From Rhizaria sp. SCN 62-66 (Eukaryota): a stretch of 64,000 nt of DNA. The stretch is from positions 124,001 through 188,000 of the forward strand of contig MEDY01000042.1 of the NCBI GenBank assembly GCA_001724265.1. Reading direction: 5' to 3'. Both the position numbers and the translations under genes were made by a program. Of this stretch, positions 726-52,700 are shown one piece after another; the first letter of the stretch is position 1; every line of letters begins with the position of its first letter. The notes beneath the pieces are model-generated. The model ran no database searches, was not told where the DNA came from, and saw only the letters and a program-made list of their open reading frames with translations.

Positions 726-3700
726 ATGTACTCCGCCTACGGCGCCCCGGCGCTGACCCCGTCCGCTGCGCCGCTGTTCACTCCCCACAGCGGCAGTTTA
801 CTCTCGCCATTCTTTATTGCTGCAGCTCCTGTGCCCGCCACGCCCGCCGCCGCTGCTGCGCCTATGGCGTCCGCCGCGAGTGCGCCCGCGTTCCCTGCGC
901 CCTGGCACGCGTCCGCGCATGTTCCACTTCCCGCGTTGAGCACGCTTGCCGCGGCTGGGGTTGTGTCGAGCGCGGGCAACAACGCTGCCACGCACTACAA
1001 CTCTCACGCCCACACAAGCGCTGGTGGTGTTAATAACGTGAGTACAGTCGCGAGTGCTGCTGCCAGCGACGTTGCTGGGCTCAACTGGGCTCCGATCCCG
1101 CACCCTGATGCCCCCGTTGTTGCTATCGTGCCACAGTTCGCCGTTATGCGCGACACTACTGCCCGCGTCAATGCTGCCGCGAGCAGCGCAAACGATATTA
1201 CGACTGCCTCGACTGCTGTGGCTGACTCTGCGCTGCTGCCCGCTGCTGACTTTGCGTCGACGGGCGAGCGCGGCTACGGAGTGTTTGGCGGCGTGTCCGC
1301 TGTTAATCCGGTCGAAAACGCGCTTAAATCGCTCACGAAAGCGGTGTTCATCACAACTGCAGTGCTGCCGAGCACTCCTTTCGCCGCCACTTCTTCGACT
1401 GACGGGAACTCGAACAGCACGGCGACAGCAAGCGCAGTGAGCGCAACGCTGCCCATTCTGGCTGAGGCGCGGGTGTCTCACACACTGATACACACGACGG
1501 ACCCTTATAATGCAGCTTCTGAGCAAGGTTCTTACGCGACTGCTAATGGAGCGATTCGTACGACGACGACGGTGTTGCCGTTGGCGGGCGCATGCTCATT
1601 GCTCGCGTTCAAACCCACAGCGCCGGTTCCTACGTCGAACGCGCTCTCGGGAGCCACCACAAACGCTTCTAGCAGCAGCAGTAACAACAACAGCTCTATC
1701 GGCGGTAATCACTGCAGTCGTCCTGAGGGCTCTGCTGCTGCGTCCCCGTCTCTCGCCACACTGACCTCACCGTCGCCGGCGCTGTCACTCGCGCCCGCGG
1801 TGCCAACCGAGAGCGTTTTTGCGCTCGCTGCTGGCGCTGCCGTGTCACTGTGGCAGGCAACCGGCCTTCCGACCACCGCCTCCGCCGCCGCCTCCGCCGC
1901 CGCCGCCGCAGCAGCAGCAGCATCAGCTGCGAGCGCGAGCGCGAGCGCTGTGGCTGTGAAGGACGCATGCGCTGCGACGTGCAGTGTGGAGTGTTTCTCC
2001 ACTGTGCCGCTGCCGATGCTGCCGCAGCCGCAGGTGACTCTGGCGCCGCTGTCCAAGCGCTCTGCGACCGGCGCCAAGCACAGCCACTCTGGCCGTAGCG
2101 ACGGCGAGGATGGGGACGAGAGCGGTAGCGACTGCGACGCAGTTGCAGTCGACTGCGACTGTGTCGGCAGCAACAGTGTTGATACTCACGCTGACCACGA
2201 GCACAGTGAGGATAGCGAGTACGATGACGACGACGACGATGACGACTATTACGATGACGATGCGAACAACAACAACAAGACCGTTGGTGCCAACAACAGT
2301 GATGCTGCTGCGACTGCATCTGACGCCGCCACTGCAAGTGGTGGTGGTGCTGCTGCTGCTGCGAAGACGTTACCGCCTCGTGCCGCTCGCACCATTGCCC
2401 GTCGCGCTTTAGTCCCCGTCGGCTGGCACCCGGCCTACGCTCGCCGTTCAAACGCAAACACAGATAGTGCCGATGCCAGGTCTGACGGCTGTGCGAGTAA
2501 TAAGCCGGCTGTGACGGTGGCGACCGCGCCGCTCACGGTCACCCACGTGTCGTGGTCCGAGCTGTGCCCCGATACGCTTGTGGTGACCGCAGTTCAGCAG
2601 GTGCGCACGGTCATTTCCGCCACCGGCTCTGCCTCCACAGCTTCACACCGTCACGGCAGCATCGATGGCAGCGCCAGTAATAACATGAAACACAGCAAGG
2701 GCCGTGTGCTCCCGTGGCGCACCCTCGCTCTGCTGGCGCCTTATGTGCTGCTGCTTGACACGCGCCGCGGTGTGTGGCGCGCTGCCATTCCGCTGCCGCA
2801 GCTTCTGTCCCCTCTGCGCTGCGGGGACACCGCGAGTGACGCTACAACTGCTCAGCCTAACTTCGCACCGCTCTCGCTGTTTGCGCGCTTCAATCACCAG
2901 TCGCCTGACTCGCTCTACATCGCAGCCGGCGAGCGCCTGTTCGCGCTGTCTCCGGCGCTGCTGAGTGCGAAGCTGCACGCTGCACACTCACACGCGCGCA
3001 CGTCTGCGGTTTCGGCCGCGGCGGCCAACGCGGCGTCGGGCACAGTCTCCGACGTGCACTGCGGCAGCAGCAGCAGTTCTGAGGGCGGGTGCTCGTGCGC
3101 GGGCGTGTCGTGCGAGCGCGCGTTCTGCGATAGCGCGAGCGAGGCGCCGTATTGCTATGACCCGTTTGTTGTTGCGTCGATTGCGCGTGGCAACTTGTCT
3201 GGCGTTGTTCCGTTCCCACTTAAGTCCGCTGAAGTGTCTGTCTCATTCCCCGCAGCAGCAGCTGCATCGGCGCAAAACAGTTACACTGATCTTGCGAATG
3301 CGACTGCTTCGCAGCAAGCGACTGTGAACAGTATTACACAGCCTGCGACTAGTGCCGCTGTAGTTGAGCCGCAGTTGCGTGTCCCTCTGTTCCCGCTCGC
3401 TGCGACGACAATCAGCGCAGTTGAACTTTCCGCTCTCGACGCAAACACTGTCGTCATCACACCTTCGTCGTCCTCGTTCAATTCGCAGTCTCACAGCGCC
3501 GTCACGGCCGGCGGCTTCGTCAACGGGCGCGCTCTGGCACACGCCGCGACACCGCGCCCCACCACAATTGCGGCCGGCGAGTCCGTCTTCGCCGCCGTGG
3601 CCGCAGAGGTTGCGACACCGCCCAAGGTCGCGCACCAGCTTGCAGCTGCGGCCGCCGCCATCGTGCTCGCCACGGCGACGGGGTACTACCCCGGCGGCGG

Positions 3701-6700
3701 GGCTTCGGCCAGAGGCGGCCTGACTTCTTCAAGAGGCGGCTTGACTACGCACCAGGGAGGCTACTACGTGGTTGGCTCCGCTGCTGCTCTTGCTCTCACG
3801 CCTTTTCTCTCGAACTCCCACACCTACAGCAGTTCTGACGGTGTTTCCCGTCATAGCGCGAAGCAACACCGGCACGCAACCGCGACTTCGAACGGTCACC
3901 GCAACCGTCCCCGTGCTCCACTGCCTCTGGCGCGCGCTCTGCGCTGCCCGTGGCTGTCGCCCGACTTTTTCGGAACCCTCTCCGCGCGCCAGGCCCCCAC
4001 TGCGGCGGCGCATGATACGGCCGCGCTTGCCCGCTGGTGGCTGCGCACTGTGCTGGGGGCTTTTTTCGGTCCCGCTGACGCCGCGACTGCGCATTACCGT
4101 GACGCGCATGCGGTCGCGCTTGCACTGGCACCCGCATTGCCCGCTGCCGCTGGCTCTAGTTCCACTTCTAACAGCAGTAACACGCGTAACAGCGCTAACA
4201 CCGATAATGTCTGCGCGTCTGCGGAGAGTACTGGCTCTGATGCGGCCACGACCAGCGATAGCAGGAGCAAGGACGACTCGTCTCCCGACAACACTTCTGC
4301 TGAGAACAATGCAAACGCCGCGCGCAAGTCGGAGGCTGCTGCGATTATGGCCGCTGAGCCTCCCCGGCTGTCGCAGCTTCTGGCCCGCGCGGCCGCAGTG
4401 TTCCTGACGTCCTGCGCGCATCTCACGGCGCTATCAGCATCTTCCAGCAGCGCGGGCGCTAGCAACGCTCTCAGTAGCAACGCCGATAGTGAGGTTAGTC
4501 CCGTCGGTGCTGCACCGCCGCGGTTTGCGGGCCTGCCGCGCGCTGTTGCCCGTGCCAGCGCTGCGTGCGCCGCTGCCGCCGCAGTAATCGCGTCCTTCGG
4601 CGTTCCTCAGTCCGTGCTCGAAGCCCTCGTCTTCACCTCTGCCGCTGCCGGCGCCGCTGCTACAGCCGCTGCGTCGGGCGTTGTTCCGGCGAACATTGCG
4701 CTCGCAGCCGCCGAGGCCGAGGTCGCCGCAACGAACGCGTTCGAAGCCGCGCTTGCGCGTCGCCTCGCAGTCTCACTTGAGCCCGCCCGCACCGCTTTGA
4801 TGGCGCACCTGTCGTCGCCCACGGTGACCGCCGCAGTTCCCGCCAGCGCCAGCGCGCCGTTTGCCCCCGGTGTGCCGTACACTGCTTTACCGGCCGCGAC
4901 GGCGACCGCGCTGTCTTCCGTGCCGATGTCGGTATTGCGCGCGCTTGCGGGCGCGGCGGCGGCGGTGCGGGCCACCCCCGGTGTAAGTGACCGTGAGACG
5001 CTTGCGTGCGGACTCTGCGTCGGTACCTGTGCCGGCTGCGCTGTTCCGACCGTGGCGTCACACTTTGTCGCTGCAGGCGGCGCGAACGCGGTGGTCGCGG
5101 CTGGCGCAGCGGTGTCGCGGCCCGTGCTGCGCCGGCCTATGCACTCACCGCCGGCGCTCATCTGGTCTGTCACACGCCAGACACATCATGCACAACACGC
5201 AGAAAGCGCGGTGGCCGTGCTGCCAGCGCTGTCGGCGTGGCTCTGGCGCAGCGCGAACGGAGAGACGAAGGCTGTCGTCGCGATCCCGGCACTTACTCTG
5301 TGTAAGGGCGTGCTCACGGTCACCCACTCGCCCGTGATGAAGATCCCCCTGACCGTGCTCAATATCAACTTCACGCCGCTGTCAGACGCTATTCCTTTAC
5401 ACGCGGGCGCTTACCCGCGCCCGTACCCTTCAGTCAACAACTATCCAGTTGTGAACAGCAACGCTGGCGCTCGTGGTGTTCCTCCGTCGTCAAACACTCT
5501 CTCTGTTCCGCATTATTACAAGCCTCAGCAGTACGGCGGCACTAGCAACCCCAGCCCGAATTATAGCCACAGTCAGTCTCTCGCCCAGTCTGTGACTGCG
5601 CCCGTGCTGCTGCCGGCTGCTGCGCTGCACAGTCTGTTGACTCTCCCGCGCGAGCTCGCTCCGAGTGCCACCTTCCACCAGATCCCTCAGATCACCTGCA
5701 ACGCTACCGCGTTTTACTCATTCCTGCTCGGTGTTCCTGTTGCCAACTCAGCGTCCTCAGGCATTGCGAAGCGTCCGCAGCACCCGCCGTTGATTGTCGT
5801 CGCTCACCCGGACTCGCCGCAGCTGTTGCTGCTGCCCCCTGCGACTGCAACGCACTTAGACACCCGTAGCAACGCACGCCGTCACCGCGGCGGCGCTCGC
5901 AACCACGGCCACACCGCCTCTGCGACTGGCACTGCTGCGACGCTGCCTGCGTCGTCACTGCTTGGTCTCGCGCTCACACGGCTTTGGGGCGCTTCCCTGC
6001 CTCACGGCGCTCTCACGTCCACTGTCTTCCCCACGAACAACGCTAACAGCAACGTTAGAAACGCGAGTTCAACAGCGCTCGCGCTCACAGTCACCGCGGC
6101 TGGCTCGGCAGCGCTGTCGCGTCTCCCGTTGCTGCGCGCCCGGCCGCAAATTCCACGTAACTCGGGCGTTCCTTTTGCGCCGATGTCACCCACCGCGTGC
6201 GGCGGCAACTGCGGTGCGGCGTTCCTTGCGAGAGTGATCACCGTTACTCAGCGCATCACCGCAGCGCTTGCGGCGACTGTGCCGGTGCCCGCTTCCGCTG
6301 TGTCGGCCGCCGGTGCGCTGGCTGGGATGCTGCCGCTGTCGCACCTGCGCATGCGACTCGAAAGCGTGTACCCCGATGTCTCGAGCGCGATCGTGCAGTT
6401 CTACACCGCGTCTGTGCCAGACACGCTGCTGTCGACTTCGGGAACAGGATACGCGGCTGGCGCTGGCGCTGGCGCTGGCTCTGGTTCTGGGGCCACTGCG
6501 AGTGCAAAGGCGGGCGCGGCGACGCATCACCGTACGCTGCTGCGTTTGCTTATCCATTGTCCTAGCTCGCACCCTCTTGCGCCTCCACAGCTCACCCCGA
6601 TGCCCTACACTGCATTCCCGGCCACTGCGGTCGCAAACGAGCGGGCGACCAACGAGAATACCGCTGAGACGCCGCAGCCCGTTGTGCGCTCGCCCCCGCC

Positions 6701-9700
6701 TCTGCACTATGCGATCGCTGACCTCGCAGTCCGCTCTTGCGCACGCCTTGCCCCGACCGCGGCCGCCGCAGCCGCCGCGCCCGCCGGCGACGCCGATGGC
6801 AGCGACGACCAGGGCGGCCTCACTGACGTCATCGCCGCTGTCACTGCGCCCGACACTGTGCTGATGTACAGCACGGTCGACGGCGCGCTCACCACAGCGG
6901 CTGCGGCTGCTGTTAGCGGCGGCATGACTGCTGCGCCCTCGGCTGCGGCTGCAGCGGCGCTGGCAGGGCCGCGAGGCGTGACCTTCGCGACTGTGAGCGC
7001 AAATGAGCCCCGGAACGCGTTGGCGGCGTCGTTGCTCGCGGCCGCTGCTATGGTGCAGACTGCGCTTGCGTTTGCCGACGTATCGGCCGCGCTGGTGCCC
7101 AGTGCTCTTGAGCTCTCTTCTGACTCGAGCAGAGTTGACGTGCAGAGTTCAGAGCGTGGGCAAACGCAGAAGCAGAAGCAGCACCCGCTTGCGCCTGCTG
7201 CAGCGATGCTCGTTGACACTCCGTTCGAGCCGTCGCAGCGCCGTCGCAGTCTGCTGCGGTTGCCGGCGCCGCTGCGTCCGCGTGCTCTGTCACTGATTAT
7301 GACAATTTGCTCGCGCTCTGCAGTCTTTGCTGCGCAACAACAGCAGCAGCAAGAGCAACAGCAACAGTCACACGCGACCGCGGCTGAGGCTAACTCTGCT
7401 GCAAGCTATGCCGCGCCGTCTGTGGTGTATCCCATTGCGCACTGGCCCTGGGACGCTGTATCCGCGCTGTCACATTCCATTCCCGCTCTTTTGGCCCCCT
7501 CGCGGCGCTACGAGACGCTCTCTACCGCACTGGAGAGCTTCCGTGCCCTGTACGCCTCCGTCGTCGGCGTTGAGTGGCTGCCCCGCGCTTCCTCCGCCGC
7601 GCTTGCGCTGGCAGTTCTGAACCCGCCCGCCGCCGCAGCCGCCGCAGCCGCGTCCGCCGCGGACGACGACGCCGCCGCAGCAGGCCTGCCGCTGCCTTCG
7701 ACACTCACTGCAGCTGCCGCCGGCAGCGGCGGCGACGCACACGGCAGCGGCGCATCGCACCACCACGGCGCAAGCGTGCGCCACGGCCGCCCTCGCACCC
7801 ACGCCGCGTACACCGCCGCCGCCGCCGCCGCCGCGCCTGGCCGTCGCAGCCGGCGGCCTAGCGCCACGGGCTCCGGCCACGGCACGCCGCAGCACGGCCC
7901 GCGCGCGTCCCCCGCGGACCCGCCGGGCACGGACGGCAACAGTGCGGCGGCCCGCCGCGGCCGGCGCCGGCACTGGCGACGAAGAAAGCGACCGCGCGCA
8001 CTCGCGTAGCCGGTCCGTGTCGCTCGTACGGCCGGAGTCGCGTGGCGCCAGGCTCGTGCGCGGCACGTCAGCGACGCGCGCCGGCGTGCGCCGCCACGGC
8101 CTCAGCGCGGCGACGGGGCCCCGCGGCGCCGCTGCGGCCGCGGCTGCGGGCGCGGTGGCTGCCGGCGGCAACGGCGCTCACCCCGTTCGTCCCCTGCTGA
8201 CGTCACCGCTGCCTGACACGCTGTCTTGGCCTGCGGATTCGCTGACGGCGTGGCCGCTGGTGACACCGCTGCACGCGCCGGCGCCGTTCGCGCTCTCCAA
8301 GCCCACGTCTGCGGCTGCTGCGGCCGTAGCGGCGGCAGCGGCGGCCTAGGTCGCTGCGGCGCCCGCGCGGTCCGCTGTGACTGCGGCGCGCGCGCTGCTG
8401 ACGATCGCGACTGTGCTGGCTGAAGTGTCGCCGGATGTGCAGGCTCTGTTTACGTTCGAGGCTGAGCTCGAGAGCACTCGCATCGCGCCTGCTTCTGCGG
8501 ACGGTAACCTGAACACGACGACGAGTGGTGTTGGTGCCGACTCGGCTGACGGTGAAGACGGCGCGCTTGTGATGCCGACTCTCGAGCACACGTCGTCGTA
8601 CAACAACAACAACACTTACGTCAGTTCTAACAGTCGTGAGTTCCGTCGTGCTGCTTCAGGCCCCGGCGTCAGCGCAACTGCCTCGTCCTCCGCCGCTGCA
8701 GCGAACGCTGCGTCGGCTGCCAAGGGGACTCTGTGGGGTGCCGTCATGCGCGCACAGACCGCTGCGCTCACTACTGCAGATACTTCACTGTTCACACTGC
8801 TGTCTGCGCCGCTAGTCGCTCCTGTCACCGCGCTTGTGGCTGCGGCCTTGGCGACGTCGGCTGCGGTCACCGCTGCCACCAGCGCCGCCGCCGCTGCCGC
8901 TGCGGTTTCCGCGGCAAGTGCGAGCGTGAGTGCGAGTGCGAGCGCCGCTAGCGCGCACAACACGAGCGTGGGTGGCGCTACTGGTGGCAGCGAGCACCGC
9001 AGCGCGAGCCGTGGCCGGCGCCGCAGCAGCCGTCTCGGCGACGGCGCTGACGACGAGACAGCTGTGGCCGCCGCAGCTGCTGCAGCAGCTGACGAGGCGC
9101 TCGCCGTCGCTGTCGCGGCGGCTGAGGCTGAGGTCCCCAACAGTGCAGCGTTCGCTGGGCTTGACGGCGTTGAAGCCGAGGCAGTTACTGACTCGCTACT
9201 GGCGTCGTTCGAGAACAGTGAGTTTGACATCGCTGTCCCGCTCCCGCTCCCTGCCCTGCCGCTCCGCCCTCGCGTCATCATTGCGTCTACTGCTGTCTCT
9301 GAGAATTTGACTGTGAGTGCGCAGTGCCCTCACATGTGTGGTATCTCCTGGGGACCGAACGGCCAACTCGTCTTCTTCTCTGCCCAAGTCCCCGGCAGCA
9401 ATGCTCGCCCACTCAATACCGCTAGCCCCAGCGCAGTTTGTGCGCCGCCGCGGTCGATGCTTGACTACTGGCGCGTGCGCAATGCGGCCCCTGCTCCCCC
9501 GACGCGGCTTAATTTATCCCACTTCTTCTACAACACGACGCTGTTCCTGCCCCACGCTCCCGGGGCGCGTGCTGCCGCCTTGGCTCCCGCTGTTGCCGCC
9601 GCAGCCGCCGCAGCCGCCGCAGCCGCCGCAGCCGCCGCTGCGACGCAGCTCCCCGCACCTACGAGCACTGCCGTCACGAATATCAGCCCGAACAACGCGA

Positions 9701-12700
9701 CTGGCGGTATCGCCGGCGTCGCTGTTGCCGTTGCTGGCGCCGATGACGCCGATTTCCTCATCGCGAACTCTCCGCAGGATCCGTCGTCTCCGCATGCGCC
9801 CGCCGCCGCGGCCGCACTTTCGTACGGCGGCAGCGATGGCCCCGGCGGCGTCGGCAGCGAGATGACTGCGCTCGCGCTCTCGGCGCAGAGCAGCGGCGTC
9901 GCAGATGGTGCGATGCTCGGCGACACGCGCGCCCCGCAGCCGCGACTGCGCGAGCGTCCTGTGTGCCTCAACCCGGCGCTGGCGCGCTTTGTGCGCGGTG
10001 GCGGCGCGTCTGACTCTGAGTCTGATTCGATGACCGATCCCCGGTCAGACGAGGGCGATTCTGACCGGAGTTACGACTCGCGGCGCCGCCACAGTGACGA
10101 CGACGCAGAGAGCGCGCTCGGTGGCATTGCGCCCCCGAGTGAGACTACCGAGGCTGACGCCGATGCGGCGCTGCTGGGGCTCTCGTTACCGGCACTGGAA
10201 ACGCTCGGGATCCGGCTTGGCACAACGCCCACAGCGAAGACCTCGGGCAGCAAGTCAGGCCGACGCCGCGGCCACCACAAGCAACAGTCCGATAACCGCG
10301 AGTCCGAGTCCGAGCGCGGCGACGGCAGTGACGGCGACGACAGCGACCGGTCGCGTCTCAGCCACCGCGGCTCGAGCAGTGGCGCAGCGTTCGGCGCCGC
10401 TGCTGCGCGGATGGGCAACAACACGGCGAACAACAGCGCGCGTCAGTCACGCCGCGGTAGCTATGCGAGCAGCGCTGGTGCCAGTCCCCGCGTCGTCAGC
10501 AGCGCCAGCGGCAGCGGTCCGCTGTCGCTGCTGACGCTCACTGCGCCTTCGTCCCAGCGGCGTCAGCGTCCGCTGCGGTCTCCGGCGGCTTCTTCTAGCG
10601 CGGCCACTGCTGCTGCTGGATCTACCGGCGACGATGACGATGCAGTCAACCGCTTTGGTCTTCGTCGCAGGCACATTGAAGTGCTCGAAGGCGCTGATCA
10701 GAGCGTTGGCAGTAGCGACGTTGACGACAGTGGCACTGATGATGTCAGCCACGACGACGCCGACTCGGACGTCGAGGGCGACGCCACCGACGAGGGCGAT
10801 GACGCACATGACGAGATTGAAGGTGACGGCCTTGACGGCTTAACTTTAGTCTCTGCGGGTGCTGACGGTGAAGGTGACCACCACCATCATGACGGCGAAG
10901 GCGATGATCTCAACGACCGTGGACTGGGAGTCGAGAGCGACGAGGACGAAGAGGAAGGCAGTATCGCGAGTATGTCTGACTCGAACAACATCAACAACAC
11001 GAACAGCAACAGCGAACTGCCTCGCATCAGCCCGACCTCGAGCACAGGCCTCACGTCTCTCTCGCGCCGCCACAGCAGCTACCACAGTTACCACAGCCGC
11101 GGCAGCAGCAAGGGCGGCAATACCCCAACCAACGCCAACCCTAAGCGCGATGAGCAGGTCAACGGGACATACGCCAGCAGTACCTCTTCCTCCAGTGGCG
11201 GCAGTGAGATTGAGGCGAGCAGCGAAGACGACATGATCCAGTGGGTCACACCAGACGCCGCGGTCGTCGCGACTAGACCCCGCACGCGCAGCCGCCACAA
11301 GCTCCGCCGTCAGCGCTCGAACCCCGGCGCTTCTGAGTCTACTTCAGCCGGAGCTGCGGAGAGCAGTAACGAGAGCGGAGTCTTAGTGCTCGGCCCTGGT
11401 GCCAGTACGGTCGCGTCGGAGCTTGAAGCCACTGCGCAACACCTCGCGCTTGAGAAGCAGCGCCAGGTGCGCCGCGCGGCTGCTGCGGCTGCTGCGGCCG
11501 CCAACGCCGCCACTGCTGCTGCGGCCGCCGCGGCCGCTGCCGAGGCCGCCGCCGCTGAGGCCGCTGCCTTGGTCCCCGCTGTCCCTCGCCCGATCACTGC
11601 GATTGCTATCGCTCCCTGCGCCGACGCGCTGACTTTCCACTCACTGTCACCGTTCTTCTTGGCGCTGGCATCAACGCGGTCCGCCCTGTCCCCAGCGCCG
11701 CCGTCGCCGCACGCCATCGCGTTGCTGGCCCTGCGGCTGAGCGTCGCCACGCGGGACCCCGCGATGTCGAAGATGGCTGAGACCGCCGCGCTACTCACTG
11801 AGCCCACGGCGTCCGCAGCAGCGGCTGCAGCTGCCGCGGCTGCCGCGCCGGTGGCCGTCTCCGCAAGCGCCGGTAGTGGCTTGTTTGCCTCGACCGGCCG
11901 CGCTCCCGTGATCTCGCACTCTGTCTTTACTTCGGGCAACGCGAGCAGCCACGGCAATAGCTCGAGCAACGCGACGGCCCTCGTCGCCGCTGCGCCCGCG
12001 CGCCCGCGCCCGTACCCGCTGCAGCAGTTCGGCATGTCTCTTGCGCGCTCTCTGCTGCGCGATCAAGTCGCCGGCGGCCACACCACCATGGCGGCGTTCA
12101 TCGCGATGCTGTTCTCCCGCTTCCTCTTCGACCCGCGCCCCGCCAACGCCGCGGCTGCAGCGACTGCAGCGGCCGCGCTCAGCGCCGTGCACCGCCGCCG
12201 TGGCCGCCGCGCTGGCCGCCGCGCCGCGAACCCTCGCCTCGGCACCGCCGCTGCGGCCGCGCGTGCCGCCGCCACGGCCGGCATGGGTGCGCCGCTGTCG
12301 TCGCTGCTGCGCGTGTTCCCGCGCTCGTTCCCGTTGCCGCGCGAAGTCGTGTCCGTGCGCGCCAGTGACGGCACGCCTTGCTCCACCGCAGTGCTTCCCT
12401 CGTCCGCTGGCGTCGCTCTCGGCTCCTCCGCCGCAGCCTCTGCCGCGACGGCGAGTACGCGTGCGCTGAGCGCTGGCGGCGCTGCTGGCCAGGCCGTCGT
12501 GGCTGTGCCGTGCCCAGCGCTGGCGTTCCTGCCCACGGTCACCTCGCAGAGCATTGTGCAGATCGTCTCGGTGCCGATGATCGCGGTTGCCTCAGAAGCT
12601 GCCGATGTGCCTCTCAGCACTGCAAGCCCCAACATGATCATTACATCTGCTCCACTCAGTGCAAGTTACAACAGTGCGGCAATCTCGAACTCCGCAAAGT

Positions 12701-21588: not shown

Positions 21589-22631
21589 ACGCAGTGTCGC
21601 AATGTTGACGATGTAACCACAGCTTGTTATGAGTAACGGCTGGGGATTTAAATGACGTCTCAGTGCGTATAATGTAAAATTCAAGCGTTAAATTAGTATA
21701 ATACATATGACTCTATTTCTTACTCTATTGTTATTTCACGTCGTATGGCTTCCTCAACATTAGTGTTGACAAAGAGTAGATTGTGATATTTTCCCTTGAG
21801 AACTCGCCAATACAGGGAGGCAACATGTGCGACTAAGCAGACATCCTTCAGATATAACATATAGCACTTCCTTATACAAACCATATCATCGGACTGACTC
21901 GGCTATCGTGCATTGGGATTGTCATCATGCGACACATGTTGCTTGACGTATGCTTTCACCGGACGGCCCACTACCAGATTTGGGAGTTTCAAAGGGCAAT
22001 ACAGACATTTGTCAAACCTACGCCGTTACGCCCATACACAATAGCACATATTGCACATCATATTTCGCCATATTCTGTTGGAACCTGGGCTAGTCGGATA
22101 TCTAGACGTGTTTCGCGACTCCATATTTGAATCTTCGAGCACAGAAAACGAACATGACACAAATAGGTCCCAGGACACCTTTCCGGAAAGCGTTAGTAAT
22201 ATAATTAAAGTGGCAAATATTACAGAGCTTTGTGTATCATCTAAGCAACACCTAATTGTATAATGACGAATAGAGGTGGCGCATATGCAGCGTAAAGTTG
22301 GGTTCGCGATTGGTTCCCGTGCTCACAGTCACCCCTTAGACGACTGGGTTTTGACCGAGCCAACTGCTCAAGCCCACGAGAGTGTAACGGCTCAGCCGAC
22401 TTCTGATATACCTCTCTTGTGCCTCACACGTCCAATGGTTTAAACTGTAGTTGATTTGCGTTATTAATTACGCATTGCTTGCTTCTGATCATTTTTTCGT
22501 TTTCCTTGAGGCTGCCATTTGCGCTTCTTATTTTCAAACTCGACGAGCGTCCGAGTCGTTCCTTTCCTCTGCTCTCGCCTCACCTTAAATCCTTTGCCTT
22601 GCCTTCCAACCCCACCCAGAAACCACTCAAC

Positions 22632-32000: not shown

Positions 32001-32371
32001 CCGTGAACGACTTGATCTTGCGCCACCGTGCCGACTACGCCCTGCGGTTGACGCCGGAGGAGCTCGCTGAGATTGCGGCGATTAGTTCCAAGGGCAAGGG
32101 CAAAGGCAAGGGGAAAGATGCGAAGCGGAAGAGTGCTTTGAAGGCGACGTCTGTCAACGAGCCTGCTGGCAAGCGGAAGCCCCGTGCGAAGAAACAAGCA
32201 GCGCCGCCTGTTCACACTGCAAGTGTGAAGAGTGACGACAACAATGTCGCTGATGAGGAGGAGGAAGAAGAGGAGGACGAAGCTGTTGTTCGCAATGTCA
32301 AGACAAACAGGGGGCGTAAACGCACATTGGAGGACGCTCATGACAATGATGATGACGATGATGACGCGTAA
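26026..32371 (+). CDS. XPG: XPG/RAD2 (ERCC5) structure-specific endonuclease, ~2,079 aa; exons 26026-26211, 26318-32371; one in-frame TAG at 27227-27229
   Basis: N domain MGVKDLW...LAIDASMWLTQF...FHRL/CCLLAYGVKPVVVFDG. I domain LLQIMGVPYIDAAAEAEAQC...VDGVVTDDSDVFIFGG, and H3TH LLGSDYTPGIKNIGKVNAIEI. Intron 26212-26317 is GTACGT...TTTAG; ends TAA. Confidence 0.93.
27227..27229 (+). other. In-frame TAG in the XPG spacer region (GSGSDS*DFSYSGTDSDVEV)
   Basis: GAC AGT TAG GAC TTC; ORFs 26324..27229 and 27260..32371 share one frame with no other stop between them. Confidence 0.85.
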
Positions 32372-40202: not shown

Positions 40203-40390
40203 TATTCATATAGGTTAAGCTTGTGATAGTGGGCTTTTGCTGACATATCACAATAAGATGTGGTACTTTAGAAGGAATTAAGATGGCGTGGGTGCGGAAA
40301 CAAGAGAACAACTAATGTGTCCATTGTACAATGTATTTTAGAATACAGAAAGACTAGTGTAGATTGATAGACTAATTTAAATCGGCTTAC

Positions 40391-43300
40391 TTAGATATGA
40401 CGTTGATTCTGCAACGCCCTGTGCAAAACATATGTGCGCGTGTCCGTTTGACCACGCTGCTGGGTTGTGTCGCCCGCGTTGTAAGTGTCCTGTGACGCAG
40501 CCCAAGTGGGCAACGGCACTGCGTGAACCTCATCCGCATATTCATAGCGATCGCCGGCCTCAACAGATGAACCATACGCAGTCCTCTGATGTCGCTGTTG
40601 CTGCTCGCGATCGCGGCGTTGGGAAGACTTGTCGTGAGCGACTCCAGTGTTCACTGCAGCGTGAGTACTTGTGGTGGCGGCGTCGTTGTCGTCACCGTTG
40701 TGCATCGACCACAGATCAGCATCTGTCGCATTTCCGCCCTGGTTATGAGCGAACGCGGAGTAACCGTGAGTTACGCGTCGCTGCTTGGCAGCATGAGGGC
40801 TGCGAGTACCATTAGCGTTCGCTGCAATTGCGATCTGGAAGCAGTCGTTGTTTGTACAGCTCGACGCATCAGAATGTACGGACGCAGCTGATTGCGAGTA
40901 CGACAGCGTGTTCGCAGGGTTGCGATGACCAGCAGTGACAGAGTCATGGACCGGCCGCACAAGCCTCGACTGTGACCGCGAGTGCGCGCGTGCCAGCGAA
41001 CGTGAGTGAGAGCCTGCAGAGGGTGCCGGCGACGGCCACGCTGACGGGGGCTCACTGACACCCGTGGCAAGCACGAGCGGGCCGCGCGGCTGCTCACGGT
41101 CATGTGTATGGTCTGCGCCTTGCTTGTCGCAGTCGTTTGATGGCTTCTTGACTGTGGCGGTCGAGGAACTCGGAGCAACACGGGGTGCTGAGGTCACATG
41201 CTCAAGGTCAGGCTGCTGCTGATGTTTTCGATCAACATCATGCTGTTGCTGTTGTTGTTGTTTTTGCGACTCAACGATGCGTTGACATTGGAGAAGATAC
41301 TGGTAATACGCATCGGTCTCCGCTGCAGCACGCTCAGCCGCAGTCATTCCCTGGAAATCGCCCTCGGCAGAGTCGATGTTATCAGCACGTTGACGCTGGT
41401 CCGAAGGCAGCTGCCGTCCGGAAGCCAAGATCTTCACAAACTCACGCAACTCATCATCGCTGACCCGAGCATTGCTATCAACTGCAGAATTTCGAATAAT
41501 ACCTCGACGACTGGTATCGCCGCCTTTTACACCGGGATTAGCATCGCCCTTGCCGCTGCGAGCCGTGGCGGCCCTGACAAGCGCTGCGCCGCGGCTACTG
41601 ATGCGCGCCTCGACCTCCATCTGGTGACTGCGGGCCTCACGCTCACGGTCAGCGCGCTCCAAAGCGCGCTGGTGCAGCCGCACTTGGAAGTTGCCGGGGC
41701 CCGTGGAGACGGACGGCCAGAGATGAGCGGGGAGACCGAGGGCGCCGGCGCCGACAGTCCTCTGCCGAGTCACGGCTCCACTGCGCTGCTGCGCGTGGCC
41801 GCGAGCAGAGGGATCAGTGGAGTGGCTGCCATACAAAGCGTCCGCCATGATGCTCGATCGGCCGCCTAACGTAACGGTTGCGGGGTGACGTAAAGACGCG
41901 CGGTGCGTTTGGTTACTGTTGCCACTGGTGTAGCTATTGTCGGAGGGCCGTGCGTTGCGCATTGAGGCCGCAAAGGGGTTATCATGCGCAGAGTCATCAA
42001 ACGAGGAATGTGGGCATTGCGACGGCTACCGCTGTTGCTGTTGCTGCATCCGGAGGTCTAAGCGGCGCATCTGGTGGCTCAGCACACGCAAGCGCTCTGC
42101 ACGCTTCGCCTCAGCTTCAGGGGGCGGCTTAACATAGATAGGGCCGGATGAGCTCGCATTCTCTGCAACATCTGAAGATGACTGTGAGTCTTGAAACTGA
42201 GAAGTTAGGCCGCCGCCGTATCCAGCGCGACGCTGCCTATGTTGCGTCTGTAGCGACTTCTTTGCACTTGCTCGGCCGTTCGTCGCGTTGCTCTTGTTGA
42301 TGTTCATCGTAGAGAGTGCAGCTGCAGTGTATAGAGCTGCCAAGCTGTCATCAGCTGCACCGACATCAACAACACCGCTACTCGCGGTCCCGTCTGGGCG
42401 GATTGACTTGAAGTGACCGTGCGTAGCGTCAACATCGAGTGAACATGAGCACTCGAGACACCGGGACGCGCATACCGTCACTCCAGTTGCACCACAGCTA
42501 GCAGCAGTGCTCACAGCCGTTCTACCGTTCGTGTCACCGGCGCTCGTGTGGGGGGCGAAAACGACAGCAGGAGACACAGCTGTCGGCGCCCAAAGCAGCC
42601 ACATCCGGCCGTCGGCCTTCTGCGCGTAAAAGTCGAGCCGCGTCAGACCCAGGTGCTCGGCGAGTCGAGAGCCAGCTGCCGTGAAGTCAGACTGTGAGTC
42701 ACCAGCGATTGACGGTGAGTTCATCGTGAACGACTGCAAGCCTGAAAAAGAGCCTGGAGTGCGGAGTTGTGCTTGAGTGGGGTCTAACAGCGAGTGTAAG
42801 TGCGACTTCTGGGAATCTACGTGGTTCTGAGAGTCTAAGGATTGCCAGGGAAGAGCTCCGCAGTCGCGCGCCCAGCCAGCCGCAATTGCGGGCAATTGTT
42901 GCGAGCTTGTGTCACCATTAAGCTGTGCGTCAGACGACGACGGCGAGTGCTGCGTAAATGATTGTGAACAGACAGACCAGAGGACCGAGCCGAGTTGTTC
43001 GGGCCTCTCACACGCAACATTGACTAACATGTGGTCATCATCATAGTCACTCGCAAAGTCCCTAGCAGCGGTAGTATTTCCGTTCTCAGTTGTAGCAGCA
43101 TTTGCTCCAGCATTTGCTCCAGCATTTTCGTTTTCTTTTGCCAACGATGTTGAGAACGATGCGACTGTTTGCAGCACAGTCACCGCAGCTTCGGACGCAG
43201 GCGCAGGCAACGGACACGCCCAGTGCGATGAGCACACACCAACAGTACGATTCCCAGTGAGCGTCGCAGTCGTGTCATTAGCTGAGAGTGACAAGGGGAA

Positions 43301-45364
43301 CAAAGGGTTCGGCCCGCGGTAATGGTGTGAAAGCACGAGTGCGATCGCGCTCCGCCACTCCCGAGCCGCTTCCTCAGCCTCAGCCATCAGTCCCGAAGCT
43401 AGCCCGCCCCCGCCACGGCGCGACATCGACTGCACCGCAATCCCGGGCCGGAGAGGCAGCCCCGGCGAGGCGCTAGCGTACGGCAGTAACGCAGCTAAAG
43501 CAGGGCCAGCGAGCGCGAATACACTCGGCGTCAGCGCAGCAACCGCGGCCGCAGACTCCGTGCGCGCGGCAGTGAGGTTGCGACGCAGTGTAAGCGTGAA
43601 CGCGGTGCGGCTGCTCTCGCCGCCGCTGCCGTACTGCCGCTGCAGCGCCGTTTGCGACGTTAACGCGGCGTGAGCTGCGGTCAAGGACTGCGAATATGAG
43701 GAGAGACCGTGGTTGCGGCGGGCGGCAATACTGTTTGCAGGTGCTGATAGGGTGAAAGCAAGAGACGACGACGCAACAAATCCAACGCGTTCAGCATTAC
43801 CACTCGCGGCACCGGCGTCATTCGCTGTGTTGCGGCTAGACTTCGCATTGCTGCTTGTTTGCGTGGGTGGTTTAGACGGTGGTAAGTAGCAACGGCGCGC
43901 GGCAGTGACGCGGGTAACGGGGGTTGTCAGCAACGCTGCCGCAGTCGCAGCGCGCGCCTGTAGCAGCCGCGCACGGCGCCAGTGCGCCTCTGACGGGAAC
44001 AGCGACGTCACCGGCGCCAGTGCGGTTGCTGTAGCCAAGGCGGGAGGCACGTATAACGGCGACGGCAACAGAGCAGACGCCGTCGTGTTCACGCTGCTAG
44101 CGTTAGGAGTCTTGTTACTAGCACTCTTGACATTAGTGCTGTTGTTGATGAGGTGAGAGAAAGGGTCGTAGTTTGGAGCGAGTGCTTGCTGCAAGACAAA
44201 GCTGAAAGGAAAGCCAGTATCTGCTGACTGCGTCGTGCTGTTTTGACTAAAGGCAGCGGGCTCAAGCACTGGCAAAGCAATGAACAAAAGCCACGCAAGC
44301 TCAGTCGGAGTCATCGGCTTGACTTCGGGCCACGCACTCACGGTCGCACGCACTGATGTAGCCAGGCTAATTGTGGTGTCACCTGCATCAGCAGTGTGAT
44401 TCGCGCCCTTGTGGTGATATTGGCCGCGAATGAAGTAAGCGGTTGGAATCTCGTCTAGGGGGTTCTCACGCCATGGCACTTGTGCTGCAGTCAGCGGTTG
44501 CAAGTCGTTCAGAAGACTCGCAACAGCTAACTGTGAATTGGCGTTGAGTGACTGTGAGCGCGGAGACAAAGCACCCGCTGCAAACGCGCGTGCCAACTGA
44601 TGCGGGAGTCCAACATCAACACATGTGCGTTCAAGTAAAGCAGAGCTGTCTCGGGAGCCGTGTTTCGTGCGGTGATCATTGTGGTGTTGAGTGAGTGATA
44701 GCGAGTTTTGCTGTGCAGAAAACGCTTGAAGTAAAGGGCTGTGATCGTTGTTGATAGCAAGCGCAGCAACAGCAGCGGCCAAAACGACTGACGGCGGTGC
44801 AAACGGGATAACACTGTCACTCAACGCAGCAGGAACAGTGAAAGTACTGCTATTCATGGCGTTGATCGCACCGTCTACAGTCGGAGAGGGCAGAGTTGGG
44901 AAGACACCTCGCGTGCGCGTCAGCGTCTCAAACACGCCTTGCGCAGTGAACTGCGACGCCAACAGCCGCTTGGTCAGGCGTGACTCGGCACATGAGTAAT
45001 ACCACGTCGCAGAGAGAGCCTGGGAGCAGTCACCGGCGCTGTGTGTGCTGATTGGGGAAGCGAAGACGACCGTGTGGGGCAAATGCAGTGCGTGTGGGGA
45101 ATCGGCCGCAGCGGCGGCAGAATGCTCAGAAACCTATCGATAAAGCAAGAATGGCAAACATAATGTGAGACTTCAAGTCTATAGTCTAGCGAATCTAAAA
45201 CCACAGAAGGATTATATGGTTTTATAGTGTACCTCGGTGCCACGTTGCCAGAGGCGACGGTAGAGTGAGGGAAGACAGGCGGCGGTCAACGGAGTGAGAG
45301 ACGACGTGCATTCGCACAGCGGGTCTGGGGCAATGTCGAACACAGCGGCAGCAGTAGCTTGCAT
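40391..45364 (-). CDS. Hypothetical protein, ~1,620 aa; exons ~45364-45233, 45133-40391; one in-frame TAG at 42028-42026
   Basis: ORFs 42026..45082 and 40391..41962 are in one frame, separated only by the TAG and 21 sense codons. Intron 45232-45134 is GTACAC...TAG and joins RGTE/VSEH in frame. Start uncertain (frame open to ~45502). Ends TAA. Confidence 0.65.
42026..42028 (-). other. In-frame TAG (MQQQQQR*PSQCPHSSFDD)
   Basis: Minus strand CAG CGG TAG CCG TCG; frame open for over 1,000 codons before and about 545 after. Confidence 0.8.
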
Positions 45365-48800: not shown

Positions 48801-49411
48801 ACAAGCGCTCCCGCAAGACGGTCGCTTTCTCCACGGGCGACGCCAAGACCGACGCCATCGCCGCAGCCGCGACTGCCGCCGCCATCAAGGCCGAGGAAGC
48901 GAAGCAGCTGCTGCCGCCGCGCGCCGCGCTGCGCATCCTCACCCCGGCCGACTTCGCGCGCATCGAGGAGCTGAAGAAGCAGCGTCTGCTCGACGGGCTC
49001 AAGGGCCAGCGCAAGCGCCAGCGTGAAGTGCTGATCGAGGACATGGTCGAGGAGGGCCGCCGTGTCAGCGCCATTGCGGCGGGCACGTACACCGACATTC
49101 AGGCCGACGACTTTGCGAGTGTGACACGGAAGAAGAAGTTAAGCCGCGAGGAGCGCGTGGCCAAGGCGGAGGAGTCTCGCGCGGCACTCAAGCTCAACAC
49201 GCGTGGTCACAAGTTCAAGGATGCCGGACTGGGTCTGTCGAACGAGGAGAAGAGCAAGACCAAGAACTTCAAGATGATCCAGCACTCGTACCGCGTCAAG
49301 AGCAAGGCCGTGCGTGGCCGTGCCGACGCGCAGAGGACGAAGCAGAAGCACAACCAGAACATGTCCAAGATGGGCAAGAATATCAAGAAGAAGATGAGTC
49401 GCCGTGTCTGA
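45884..49411 (+). CDS. SDA1: SDA1/SDAD1 60S ribosome biogenesis factor, ~996 aa; exons 45884-45947, 46121-48015, 48166-48276, 48491-49411
   Basis: Motifs LLTLQNRMKRDPDGYREEFLQQ, VELWRRNTW, LLLFNFYPFIQRYLQPHQR, HSLVPPEVLQP, NPELLRRKDRG, RILTPADFARI and GLSNEEKSKTKNFKM. Three GTACGY...AG introns; ends TGA. Confidence 0.96.
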
Positions 49412-49744: not shown

Positions 49745-52700
49745 TTAGTTGAGCTGCAACTGCGACGTCAGCCGTGCAATCTCTTGATCCTGCTCAGTCG
49801 CCAGTGCCGCGTTCACTGCAGCCACGTTGGGCATCGTCTCCACAGTCGCGGCCAGCGCACCAGCGTCATCGGCAGTCGCGGCACCCGCGGCACCCGCGGC
49901 GGCGGCTGCTTCGGCCTCGGCGTCATCCCGAGCCGCCGCCTCCGCCTCAGCCTCGGCCTCAGCGACGGCAGCCTGGTCGAAGCTCGCGATCTTAGCCTTC
50001 AACACACCGCGCTCGCGCTCGAGCTGCCGCACGCGCGCCAGCAACGCGTCGTTGCCCTTGCCGGCCGCCGCCGCAGCCGCCGCCTGTTGCTCCGCCGCAG
50101 TCTTCGCAGCGGTGAGCTGTGACTGCAGAGTGACAAGCTCGCTGCGGACCTTCGCCCGCAGCCCCTGCTTGGCGGCCGCGGCGTCGCGCCGCTGCTGCTG
50201 CTGCTGCCGCGCGTAGCTCACGGCGCGCTTGACGATGTTGTTGGTCACGGCGCTCTCGGCAGCCATCGTGCGGCGCGTGCTGAAGCTCCAGTCGACCTCT
50301 TGCTCACGGTCGCTCGCCGTCGCCGTGCGCGAGGCCAGCACGGCCTCCCAGCGGCGACGCTTCCACGCGAGCAGCGCGGCCTCGCGCTCGGCAACAAGCA
50401 CGGCCCGGTTGACCACGAACGGCACCGAGTCGCGGTCGCCATCGGCCGCATCCAGGTTGCTGTAGGCGTCGACGCGCACGCGGACGACGCCGGTGCGGTC
50501 ACCGCGGCGCGTGTGGGGCGCCGGCGCGGTCGGGTGCATCGACCTCGCCGCGAGCAAGGCGGCGGAGCGCGCGGCGGCGGCGAGGTGGTACTGTGCACAG
50601 CCGCGGGAGCAAGAGCAATAGCACTCCGCTGTCGTCGGGACGCAGGGGGCGGAGCCCACAGCGGCCGCTGCGGGGGTCGCGGAGGCCGCGGCGGTCGGGT
50701 AGCGGCAGACTTGGCCCGGGCGCGCGGCGGAATGGCCGGCGCCGCCGCAGATGCAGGTACAGGGCTCGCCGTGGGCGTAGCAGCCGTCGCTCGGGTCGGG
50801 GGCGCTGTTGTGGAGGACGTTCGCGATGCCACTTGTGTTGTACAGACTCGAGCTCGAACTGGAAGGACGAGTTGTGGCAACTGCACTTGTGACAGTGTTC
50901 GGAATAGCGCCGGAGTTGTTGTTGTAGATGCTGGACGGGAGAGGGACGCTGCTGCCGGTAACCGCGGCGGCAGGGCACTGCTGTGCAGATTTCGAGTAGT
51001 CGGCCGCCGTCTTGCGCGGGAAGCCAGGCGCGGGCGGGAAAGTGGCGAGATCAGCCGGGGTGACTGCGAGCGCGTCGCTCGCGAGAGCGCTGTACCGGCC
51101 GGAACTCATGAAACTCGTGAAAGGGGGGTTACTATAGTGATAGTTATAGATAGAGTTAGAGTTATAGCCTGGAGTAGAGTTAGCGGGAGCAGCGTTGGCG
51201 GCGGCACTGTTGTCGGCGGCGGTGGCAGAGGCAGTGCGCGCAGTTGCGGCGAGCAGCGAGGGAACGCGGTCGGGGTGGCCGTGGGCCGCGATGGCGGGGG
51301 GGTGCATCGATGACAGCGCAGCAGAAGCAGCAGAGTGACTGGGAGCAGATGGGTGACTGTGAGCCGCGTAGCCGCCTGGCGACGAGTGACCGTGAGACGA
51401 GAGGTGACCGTGGGCAGCATGGTGACCGTGAGCTGCGGGACTGTGACTATGATTGTGAGCCAGGTGACCGTGAGCAGTGATGTCAGGGTGACTGTGAGCA
51501 GCAATAGGTGACGAATAGCTATAAGAAACACCAGTCGTTAGACTACGAGCGGCAACAGTTGGAGTGTTCGGTGACACGGGGCTTAAGCGAGAGTCAGAAC
51601 TGGTAGTTAAGCTTGAAATTGAGCTATATCTAGCACTATCACTAGCAGGCGAGTTACTCTCGCTATGCTTAGCTTCCATCTCAGCCTCCACAGTTGCAGT
51701 CGCGTTCGTGGTCGCAGTCGAGGTGGCAAGCGGAGTGATCGCATCACCGCCGCCGCCGTAAGCGCCGTTACTAGCGGCAGTGTAGCGAGGAACACTCGCG
51801 TCCGTACTCGTGTCGCTTGCGGCAGCGCCTGCTGAGCTGCTAGTCGTATATGGGATGACGATTGGAGAGCCAGCGAGGGGAGCGTGCGTGTTGTCATAGT
51901 AGCTGTGGCCACTCTGCTTCGTGAAGCCGTTGCTGCTCGCCACTGAGCCAACGCCAAACCCGACGCCGACACCGCCAGAACTGGCAGCAGCAGCGGCAGC
52001 GGCGGCGGCGGCGACCGAGGGCGACAGCAGCGGCGGCGACGGCAGAGCAGCGGAGTAGACTGAGTGCACAGTACCGACGGGCGCAGCGTTAGAGCCGGCG
52101 ACGGAAGTTAGGCCGCCTGTGCCAATATAGGCCGCGCCGCTGCTGCTCGAAGTCAAGCCGCCGTGCCCGGCCATCACCGCCATCGCAGCAGCACGCGAGT
52201 TAGGTGTGCTCCCATTGCCACCAATAGCGGCCGCCTCACCCACGGTCGCCCCGCTCAGCCCGCCGTAACTGCTGCTGTTGTTGCTGTTGCTGTTGTTGTG
52301 ACGAGCTGCGCTGTTGGAGCGTTGCGAGCTATTGGTGTTATCGTAAGGTGAGAGCGTGACAAACGCGGTCTGATCCGACGGCAACGACGGGAAAACAAGC
52401 GGTCCGCCCAGAGCTCGGCACGTATAGGGCACTGACGCGTCGACGAGAGTCTGGTATTCCGGCTTATGCTCGCAGCCGCAGGCGCAGTCGTCGCAGCGGC
52501 TGCACGCGCAGTGCACGTCGCAGTTGCAGTCGCACACGGGCCGACCCGCGCGCTGCCGGCCCCGCGCCTCGGGCATCTGTGCGACTGTGCGTGCAACGTG
52601 CTTATTCTGACCGACGAAGTCCTTGGTGTAGACGTCCCGGGCCGCGGCGGCGGCGTCGGCGGTTTGCACGCGACGCACGTAGCGCGCGGCCTTAGGCGAC

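Follow-up and report, generated by a model that had tools for sequence, protein, structure and literature searches.

Why does one 12-base word, GCTCACRGTCAC, recur hundreds of times more often than chance predicts in a stretch of DNA from Rhizaria sp. SCN 62-66, on both strands and in every reading frame in which it does not create a stop codon? The stretch (GenBank assembly GCA_001724265.1, contig MEDY01000042.1, positions 124,001 to 188,000), referred to below as the window, comprises 64,000 nucleotides (nt) and holds 17 exact copies of the word, nine on the plus and eight on the minus strand, all at the coordinates given in an initial annotation made from the sequence. The expected number is 0.04, the mean of 100 dinucleotide shuffles of the window, none of which contained more than one copy; the value of 0.015 that the annotation had derived from a uniform base composition is arithmetically correct. 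Its seven near matches are all present, the one placed at 63260 in fact starting at 63259 and the one at 272 carrying two mismatches rather than the single mismatch of the other six. Relaxed matching adds 23 one-mismatch and 51 two-mismatch copies, and, simple repeats aside, the commonest 9- to 12-mers of the window are all fragments of GCTCACRGTCAC.

Sixteen of the 17 exact copies lie in long open reading frames (ORFs), within 54,606 coding bases, and the enrichment survives three codon-aware controls of 300 runs each, in which no run gave more than three copies. Shuffling the order of codons in the ORFs left a mean of 0.04 copies, shuffling synonymous codons with each protein kept left 0.57, and a dicodon Markov model gave 0.64. 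At zero, one, two and three mismatches, the coding part contains 16, 23, 48 and 183 copies, compared with 0.05, 1.1, 16.9 and 130 expected for these classes under a first-order Markov model, so that a halo of degenerate copies stands above expectation by 22, 31 and 53 at one, two and three mismatches, respectively. The word is also spelled against the codon usage of the gene set: the exact word encodes eight of 14 AH[GS]H peptides despite the low frequencies of GCT (0.22 of Ala), GGT (0.21 of Gly) and AGT (0.15 of Ser), and six of nine DRE peptides are encoded by GACCGTGAG despite a CGT frequency of 0.20 of Arg. The origin of the word is at the DNA level, and the earlier view that the bias acts on DNA rather than on protein is borne out by the use of five of the six frames, by codons that run counter to their own usage and by the codon-aware shuffles.

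The 40 copies with at most one mismatch in the window are read as AH[SG]H (sense frame 0, 14 copies), [LP]TVT (sense frame 2, 11), DRE (antisense frame 1, seven), VTVS (antisense frame 0, five) and S[QR]S (sense frame 1, two), one copy being intergenic; translation copy by copy returns the five peptide readings that had been described. The word had also been called frame-independent, which is accurate for five frames and inaccurate for the antisense frame that would yield TGA. When neighbouring copies are merged, the window and 13 further contigs (see below) contain 59 genic loci, none of which is in the TGA-giving frame (P = 2e-5). All 15 copies in the D-x-E frame carry the G variant of the word, which encodes Arg there; the A variant, which would encode Cys, accounts for 33 of the 89 copies outside that frame. 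By orientation, 38 loci are sense and 21 antisense, in agreement (p = 0.51) with the 3:2 ratio expected for random DNA orientation with only the TGA-giving antisense frame forbidden. The strands are used symmetrically once this frame is set aside, and a protein-level filter acts on the copies; the fit to 3:2, the empty TGA frame and the Arg-only D-x-E frame together indicate that the word is placed regardless of strand and frame and then filtered by proteins.

The distribution among genes bears on the same filter. The Pfam-bearing genes for Nuf2, SDA1, RCC1 and a 4′-phosphopantetheinyl transferase, which make up 6.8 of the 54.6 kb, contain one of 39 genic copies, compared with approximately 5.4 expected at the rate of the other ORFs (P ~0.03 by copies and ~0.08 by loci, hand calculation). 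The absence of the word from the coding exons of SDA1 and LC8, reported earlier, holds even when two mismatches are allowed. Conversely, the word shapes protein sequence, as had been proposed, in the form of His-rich AHGH arrays, RS-like RSRSP arrays and DREQ repeats. Along the window, the exact copies change from the plus to the minus strand at approximately 30 to 35 kb, where gene orientation and GC skew change too, so that these effects are inseparable when the word is compared with oriented words (Chi, KOPS/AIMS), whose orientation is skewed with the direction of replication; nine of the 23 one-mismatch copies are exceptions to this switch (hand count). The sign of the GC skew itself flips near 28 kb, along with the predominant gene orientation.

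The word acts as a single unit, 12 to 15 bases long, with a weak extension to c-Y-GCTCACRGTCAC-Y-c. Among 49 exact copies from the window and the related contigs, the preceding base is a pyrimidine in 47, the base before that is C in 32 and the following base is a pyrimidine in 36; among 28 TCACRGTCAC cores, G stands two positions upstream in 20 and C one position upstream in 20. In neither set does flank conservation extend past two to three positions from the 12-mer. Once copies with up to two mismatches are masked, the half-sites are not enriched, GCTCAC occurring 48 times and RGTCAC 68 times versus 66.8 and 99.2 in a model that was trained on the unmasked window and is hence generous. The alternative raised in the initial annotation, slippage of a TCACAG hexamer with no conserved GC flank, is ruled out as the whole explanation by the retained flank, the unenriched half-sites and the dissimilar spacers of the arrays, and a hexamer microsatellite (TCACRG)n was rejected as the cause on the first two of these grounds; only a minority of copies have the form xGTCACRGTCAC. 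Decay of CpG was likewise rejected as the source of the A/G variable position, the partner TG variant, GCTCATGGTCAC, being missing among the one-mismatch copies. The word is non-palindromic, and, to our knowledge, none of the E-box/CDEI, AP-1/MARE, MEIS, T-box or nuclear-receptor half-site motifs fits it.

Thirteen of the 49 exact copies stand alone, the nearest other core being more than 60 nt away. Arrays are found at 51335-51499, 21292-21318 and 35327-35362 of the window and in contigs L030, L041, L084 and L085, with units of 15, 18, 21 and 24 nt, all multiples of three, the shortest of which, at 15 nt, encodes AHGHS. Within them the 12-mer is kept at zero to two mismatches and the spacers, of 0 to 177 nt, have only a short yCT motif in common; such kept cores and scrambled spacers do not fit simple tandem duplication followed by even decay.

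How a single copy comes into being can be examined in Nuf2, where the protein segment LAAAKRDREQEEPAKAAL (KRDREQEEP) aligns without gaps to LAAAQRERDAEEPARAAL (QRERDAEEP) in P0067, the sole Nuf2 homologue found (54% identical), with RDREQ opposite RERDA. The gapless alignment indicates that this copy arose by substitution or patch replacement and not by the addition of 12 or 15 bases, that is, judging from the aligned sequences, in place and without an insertion or deletion (indel). The copies lack target-site duplications, matching flanks being present at three of 40 for k = 3 and at none of 40 for k = 4. Transposon ends or excision footprints, of the kind left by miniature inverted-repeat transposable elements, were rejected on the flanks, which are not conserved past two to three positions, on the 0 of 40 duplications and on the Nuf2 copy; the inverted pair 29768/29990 was also considered as the ends of a 234-nt element and dismissed, with a match of 14 nt and no further support. 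The noncoding DNA of the window (8,392 nt, 45.6% GC) contains one copy at up to one mismatch where uniform density predicts approximately five (P ~0.03, hand calculation), and chance near matches occur there at about half the density; the scarcity of both fits the conversion of near matches better than random insertion. Taken together, the Nuf2 copy, the lack of duplications and the sparse noncoding copies speak for a force by which near matches are drawn to the complete word, on the basis of a single aligned site and a limited amount of noncoding DNA.

Beyond the window, the word recurs in what are most likely other regions of this genome. A scan of 241 million metagenome contig records for two copies 3 to 33 nt apart retrieved at least 119 stretches, and, among the matches listed, 13 share a contig-name prefix (L002, L012, L013, L030, L041, L053, L057, L062, L080, L081, L084, L085 and L097); these total 37.1 kb, have 54 to 68% GC and do not overlap the window. 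With the seeding pairs masked together with 60 nt on each side, the 34,913 nt that remain contain eight exact copies (0.229 per kb), where 0.025 would be expected under a third-order Markov model; the other 106 listed stretches contain seven exact copies outside the pairs in 568.6 kb, or 0.012 per kb. ORFs of L053 and L097 have letter-for-letter matches in Logan and ENA assemblies in which proteins of the window are also present, and the longest contig with the L097 protein measures 397,483 nt, exactly as it does for proteins of the window itself. From these matches and the common figure, the 13 contigs are most likely other parts of the genome of the same organism and not of a relative. Exact look-up of 10 contig ORFs found two, the other eight probably differing in the called start. 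The five readings recur in these contigs as AHGHS, RSRSP, LTVT, VTVSS and RDREQ. The remaining 106 stretches were rejected as instances of the same phenomenon, being tandem satellites, bacterial repeat proteins (L102, with a period of 321 nt) or chance; L029, L044, L099 and L109 (50 to 53% GC) carry tandem ACTCACAGTCACT and (AGTCAC)n arrays, apparently unrelated satellites that have the core in common through slippage. In a viral collection, 27 stretches were retrieved, and only in L123 does an exact copy lie apart from the seeding pair.

Both introns of LC8 (22722-22867 and 22952-23066, GT..AG) are spliced out in contigs of RNA-type libraries, which identifies the host as a eukaryote. The word is unchanged in contigs of a poly-A RNA library (X8, record 24 at 21292 and record 29 at 36438), and contigs of a mixed library with spliced LC8 (X5, records 10 and 12) cross copies unaltered. 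Together the RNA-library contigs, from libraries in which DNA may be present, cover 21292-21395, 29768/29990, 34597/34630 and 36438 without change, so the copies are not spliced out. DNA contigs from another study (X3) are identical to the window and thus reveal no polymorphism, and X7 consists of short identical pieces only. Ends of X3 and X5 contigs on the copies at 29988 and 35327 were attributed to breaks of the assembly graph at repeats and not to biology.

Tentatively, and as a possible rather than a probable reading, we take GCTCACRGTCAC to be a double-stranded recognition word gained by drive or weak selection, multiplied by slippage and filtered by proteins; the factor, the force and the function are ones that we infer only. 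A putative sequence-specific DNA-binding or repair activity would recognise c-Y-GCTCACRGTCAC-Y-c, and a directional force would convert near matches in place to the full word, either through molecular drive, by biased conversion or short-patch repair, or through weak selection on the density of sites. Replication slippage would then build short local arrays with units of 15 to 42 nt, and purifying selection on the host proteins would purge those copies that introduce a stop or a cysteine or alter a conserved domain. Several points weigh against such a recognition word. Most copies are in orphan, low-complexity, slippage-prone ORFs, and the word itself contains a TCAC...TCAC direct repeat. Noncoding sites would be the cheapest for selection, yet only one of the 17 exact copies is noncoding, the intergenic copy at 22321 that had correctly been placed upstream of LC8, 300 nt before the ATG at 22632. 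The sole site that could be aligned for an indel check is the Nuf2 copy, the data amount to approximately 101 kb of one organism, with the 13 contigs chosen for having a pair of copies, and the excess of sense over antisense loci differs from 1:1 (p = 0.036), so that transcription or RNA may have some effect.

That same sense excess is the starting point for an RNA-level element, a binding site in mRNA for an RNA-binding protein or a small RNA, to which the unchanged copies in the poly-A library and the resemblance of GCTCAC, the first half of the word, to CTCAC-like branch-site sequences in four of five introns might also be credited. The 38:21 ratio is, however, matched by strand-blind placement without the TGA frame, the 21 antisense loci have copies that are equally exact, the contigs are no proof of transcription and no connection could be made between the intronic sequences and the exonic copies, so that we consider this explanation very improbable. 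A more serious rival, though still a doubtful one, is a self-propagating minisatellite seed that needs no factor, namely a slippage-prone 15-nt unit (GCTCACRGTCAC followed by yCT) that would expand where coding DNA is weakly constrained, be spread to new sites by template switching or short ectopic conversion among its many copies and otherwise be neutral. It would account for array units in multiples of three, for the direct repeat within the word, for the concentration of copies in orphan low-complexity ORFs such as g5 and g6, which lack homologues, and for the halo of degenerate copies; it is at odds with at least 13 exact copies that are isolated and have dissimilar flanks, with array spacers that differ while the cores stay at zero to two mismatches, with half-sites that are not enriched and with a Nuf2 copy that sits in a conserved coiled coil of unchanged length. 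A 12- to 15-nt patch lacking homologous flanks is, besides, a poor substrate for homology-directed conversion.

Micro-insertion of a 12- or 15-nt block, as a transposon-excision footprint or as filler DNA from an abundant template, kept where an in-frame addition is tolerated, would explain a unit that is a multiple of three, its sharp edges, its presence on both strands and the empty stop-giving frame. We regard it as improbable: the Nuf2 copy replaces residues and adds none, target-site duplications are lacking, noncoding DNA, which should be the most tolerant, is short of copies, and the word does not form the end of any longer element, the inverted pair 29768/29990 having just 14 nt in common. 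Selection at the protein level for short peptide repeats such as the His-rich AHGH, with codons homogenised by conversion, is suggested by AHGH arrays that look metal-binding and RSRSP arrays that look like RS domains, but it is contradicted by the frame data, one DNA word being read as five unrelated peptides on two strands, and by the protein-preserving synonymous shuffle; we find it scarcely credible. Least credible of all is an artefact of assembly or sequencing, or adapter-like contamination. The window does come from a metagenome assembly of modest depth (~6x in run X3), but the idea is already contradicted by X3 records 1-7, DNA contigs of a different study that are identical to it wherever they cover 21,053 to 40,839, apart from zero to one other letters per contig, by the recurrence of the word in contigs of a separate collection and by copies that leave long ORFs uninterrupted and stay out of the stop-giving frame.

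Hyper-abundant short words that prevail over codon choice are known from textbooks for some bacteria, among them uptake sequences, HIP1 and Chi. The closest match to the behaviour of GCTCACRGTCAC is the bacterial uptake sequence, a likeness of behaviour and not of membership, the host being a eukaryote. Like the uptake signal sequence (USS) of Pasteurellaceae and the DNA uptake sequence (DUS) of Neisseriaceae, the word is short, non-palindromic, hugely over-represented and present on both strands, has many coding copies in tolerated frames and enriches the encoded peptides. USS and DUS favour poorly conserved genes, and only one of 39 genic copies of the word is in a gene with a conserved domain; according to one study, uptake sequences doubled the frequency of the tripeptides they encode and preferred poorly conserved genes and positions (PMC2817400). 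The hosts of USS and DUS are, however, naturally competent bacteria, whereas the host of the word has spliced introns and genes for LC8, Nuf2, SDA1, XPG and RCC1, and no uptake machinery is known from it, no search aimed at one having been made; unlike USS and DUS, the word also forms short tandem arrays, and inverted pairs acting as terminators were not seen. It is conceivable, but in our judgement rather unlikely, that the word plays in a eukaryote the part of bacterial uptake or ‘self’ words, in which case it would be recognised by a sequence-specific nuclear machinery, and this machinery for repair, recombination, DNA import or foreign-DNA discrimination would drive it by biased conversion and thereby rewrite orphan proteins into His-rich, RS-like and DRE-rich repeats.

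The cyanobacterial HIP1, GCGATCGC, is thought to be linked to sequence-specific DNA enzymes and is recognised by two methylases (PMC13756078, PMC4390886). Both it and the word are hyper-abundant in coding DNA, HIP1 in all frames, but HIP1 is an 8-base palindrome of bacteria and the word a 12- to 15-base non-palindrome of a eukaryote. Minisatellite cores and PRDM9-type motifs present a core of 10-15 bases in dispersed short arrays, regarded as a site at which a protein binds and promotes rearrangement; such cores are mostly in noncoding animal DNA, and hotspot motifs tend to erode. Here too a common core stands in tandem arrays whose units differ between loci, although most copies of the word are single, exonic and exact, and 13 of the 49 exact copies are outside any array. 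In cryptic simplicity, slippage makes DNA repeats in several frames, the classic cases being mono- to trinucleotide or locus-specific. The word resembles these in being a DNA-level repeat read in different frames to give low-complexity peptides and differs from them in being one 12-mer with a conserved flank and isolated copies at unrelated loci. No eukaryotic hyper-abundant exonic word was found in the literature searched, supplementary files aside. Among the 20 papers listed of 62 that contain the literal 12-mers, almost all concern single-domain antibodies (nanobodies or sybodies), and a few are unrelated; the sequences there are presumably primers, because GTGACCGTGAGC encodes VTVS.

Table 1. 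Copies of the word, genes and in-frame TAG codons. Exact copies are given with the base (G or A) at the variable position; positions refer to the window unless a contig is named.
Feature	Position	Strand	Variant or sequence	Context
Exact copy	2531..2542	+	G	ORF g1 (525-8009), sense, P-LTVT
Exact copy	5312..5323	+	G	g1, sense, V-LTVT
Exact copy	6083..6094	+	A	g1, sense, A-LTVT
Exact copy	19443..19454	+	A	giant RING ORF g2 (8350-21588), sense, V-LTVT
Exact copy	21292..21303	+	G	g2 C-terminal tail, sense, AHGHS; cluster with 21307, 21384
Exact copy	22321..22332	+	A	intergenic, upstream of LC8
Exact copy	25032..25043	+	G	Nuf2, antisense, RDREQ
Exact copy	29768..29779	+	A	XPG spacer, sense, AHSHS
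Exact copy	29990..30001	-	A	XPG spacer, antisense, VTVSD
Exact copy	34630..34641	+	G	orphan ORF g5 (33080-35713, minus strand), antisense, SDREQ; pairs with 34597
Exact copy	35351..35362	-	G	g5, sense, AHGHL; 24-nt tandem pair with 35327
Exact copy	36438..36449	-	A	orphan ORF g6 (35733-37619, minus strand), sense, AHSHL
Exact copy	44548..44559	-	A	ORF g9 (40391-45133, minus strand), sense, RSQSL
Exact copy	51353..51364	-	A	g11 (49745-53386, minus strand), sense, AHSHP; in 51335-51499 array
Exact copy	51422..51433	-	G	g11 array, AHGHH
Exact copy	51464..51475	-	G	g11 array, AHGHL
Exact copy	51488..51499	-	A	g11 array, AHSHP
One mismatch	4987..4998	-	TCTCACGGTCAC	g1, antisense, DRE frame
One mismatch	6987..6998	-	GCTCACAGTCGC	g1, antisense, ATVSA
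One mismatch	12531..12542	+	GCCCACGGTCAC	g2, sense, PTVT
One mismatch	18465..18476	+	GTTCACAGTCAC	g2, sense, FTVT
One mismatch	21307..21318	+	ACTCACAGTCAC	g2, sense, THSHH; 15 nt past 21292
One mismatch	21384..21395	+	GCCCACAGTCAC	g2, sense, PTVT
One mismatch	30330..30341	+	GCTCACAGTCGC	XPG, sense, RSQSP, within SQ-rich stretch
One mismatch	31997..32008	-	GTTCACGGTCAC	XPG, antisense, VTVND
One mismatch	33359..33370	-	GCACACGGTCAC	g5, sense, AHGHG
One mismatch	33971..33982	+	GCTCACAGGCAC	g5, antisense, VPVSE
One mismatch	34597..34608	+	GCCCACGGTCAC	g5, antisense, SDRGR
One mismatch	35327..35338	-	GCCCACGGTCAC	g5, sense, AHGHP
One mismatch	37197..37208	+	GCTCACAGTCCC	g6, antisense, GTVSG
One mismatch	41092..41103	+	GCTCACGGTCAT	g9, antisense, HDREQ
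One mismatch	41641..41652	+	GCTCACGGTCAG	g9, antisense, ADRER
One mismatch	50302..50313	+	GCTCACGGTCGC	g11, antisense, SDREQ
One mismatch	51060..51071	-	GCTCGCAGTCAC	g11, sense, LAVT
One mismatch	51335..51346	-	GCTCCCAGTCAC	g11 array, APSHS
One mismatch	51386..51397	-	TCTCACGGTCAC	g11 array, SHGHS
One mismatch	51404..51415	-	GCCCACGGTCAC	g11 array, AHGHL
One mismatch	57415..57426	-	GATCACAGTCAC	g13 (56760-63998, minus strand), sense, ITVT
One mismatch	60595..60606	-	GCTCACGATCAC	g13, sense, LTIT
One mismatch	63259..63270	-	GCTTACAGTCAC	g13, sense, LTVT
g2	8350-21588			4,412-codon ORF with C-terminal RING domain
LC8	~22.6 to 23.2 kb			recognisable domain
Nuf2	24382-25698	-		recognisable domain
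XPG	26318-32371	+		recognisable domain
4′-phosphopantetheinyl transferase	39198-40202			recognisable domain
SDA1	46027-49411			recognisable domain; intron-containing
RCC1	53595-55963			recognisable domain
In-frame TAG	27227-27229			inside XPG, between N and I domains
In-frame TAG	42026-42028			window
In-frame TAG	59148-59150			window
In-frame TAG	L057 3776-3778			contig L057
In-frame TAG, one side shorter	8347-8349			window
In-frame TAG, one side shorter	L012 490-492			contig L012

The window has long ORFs on both strands, and its DNA occurs in bioreactor and wastewater metagenomes of several studies; the host is single-celled, uncultured, rich in GC and poor in introns. The large ORFs g1, g5, g6, g9, g11 and g13 carry no Pfam family, and g5 and g6 have only self-matches among 1.8 and 5.8 billion proteins, respectively; these six and g2 are of low complexity, with a weak GC contrast between codon positions. 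A protein search with SDA1 gave 58 matches, the nearest at 55 to 69% identity. Exons have 63% GC, and GC content is 62 to 69% in the first 20 kb, which hold two giant ORFs, and 55 to 60% from 20001 to 64000. Between the N and I domains of XPG lies an unusually long acidic, Ser/Gln-rich spacer of approximately 1,500 residues, whose SQ-rich stretch at 30120-30340 is mostly written TCA CAG. Besides those of LC8, introns were read from the sequence only in SDA1 (48017-48164 and 48277-48490) and RCC1 (~54291-54426). All five are AT-rich amid GC-rich exons and begin GTACG[TC]; four have a CTCAC-like sequence near the 3′ end and that of RCC1 has CTCAA. In LC8 intron 2 and the RCC1 intron, 7 to 8 nt separate this sequence from the 3′ AG. 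Scans of the window for tRNA and Rfam families gave no matches.

In the window and the 13 contigs, all four of the single stops that separate two stop-free stretches of at least 300 codons are TAG, and two further in-frame TAG codons have one shorter side (Table 1). X3 record 2, a DNA contig of another study, has an identical TAG at 27227. In this organism the codon may be read through or may have been recently reassigned; all the sites lie in disordered regions, which give no indication of the amino acid, and the tRNA scan found no tRNA gene in the window. In-frame TAG is rare here, at approximately one per several thousand codons, unlike in the rhizarian exLh, for which 384 in-frame UAG codons in 71 genes are reported (PMC5304391). 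If TAG is read through, g1 runs to 8216 and overlaps the frame leading into g2 (from 7621) by approximately 600 nt (7621-8216), the two being in different frames.

The density of GCTCACRGTCAC is approximately one exact copy per 4 kb, and, by extrapolation, thousands of copies would be present if this held genome-wide. As the pair pattern retrieved 13 contigs from 241 million records, the word could aid the binning of metagenome contigs of this organism. It may further point to one way in which orphan proteins of low complexity originate, and, if a recognising activity exists, it would offer a new system in which to study the interplay of DNA-level drive and protein evolution.

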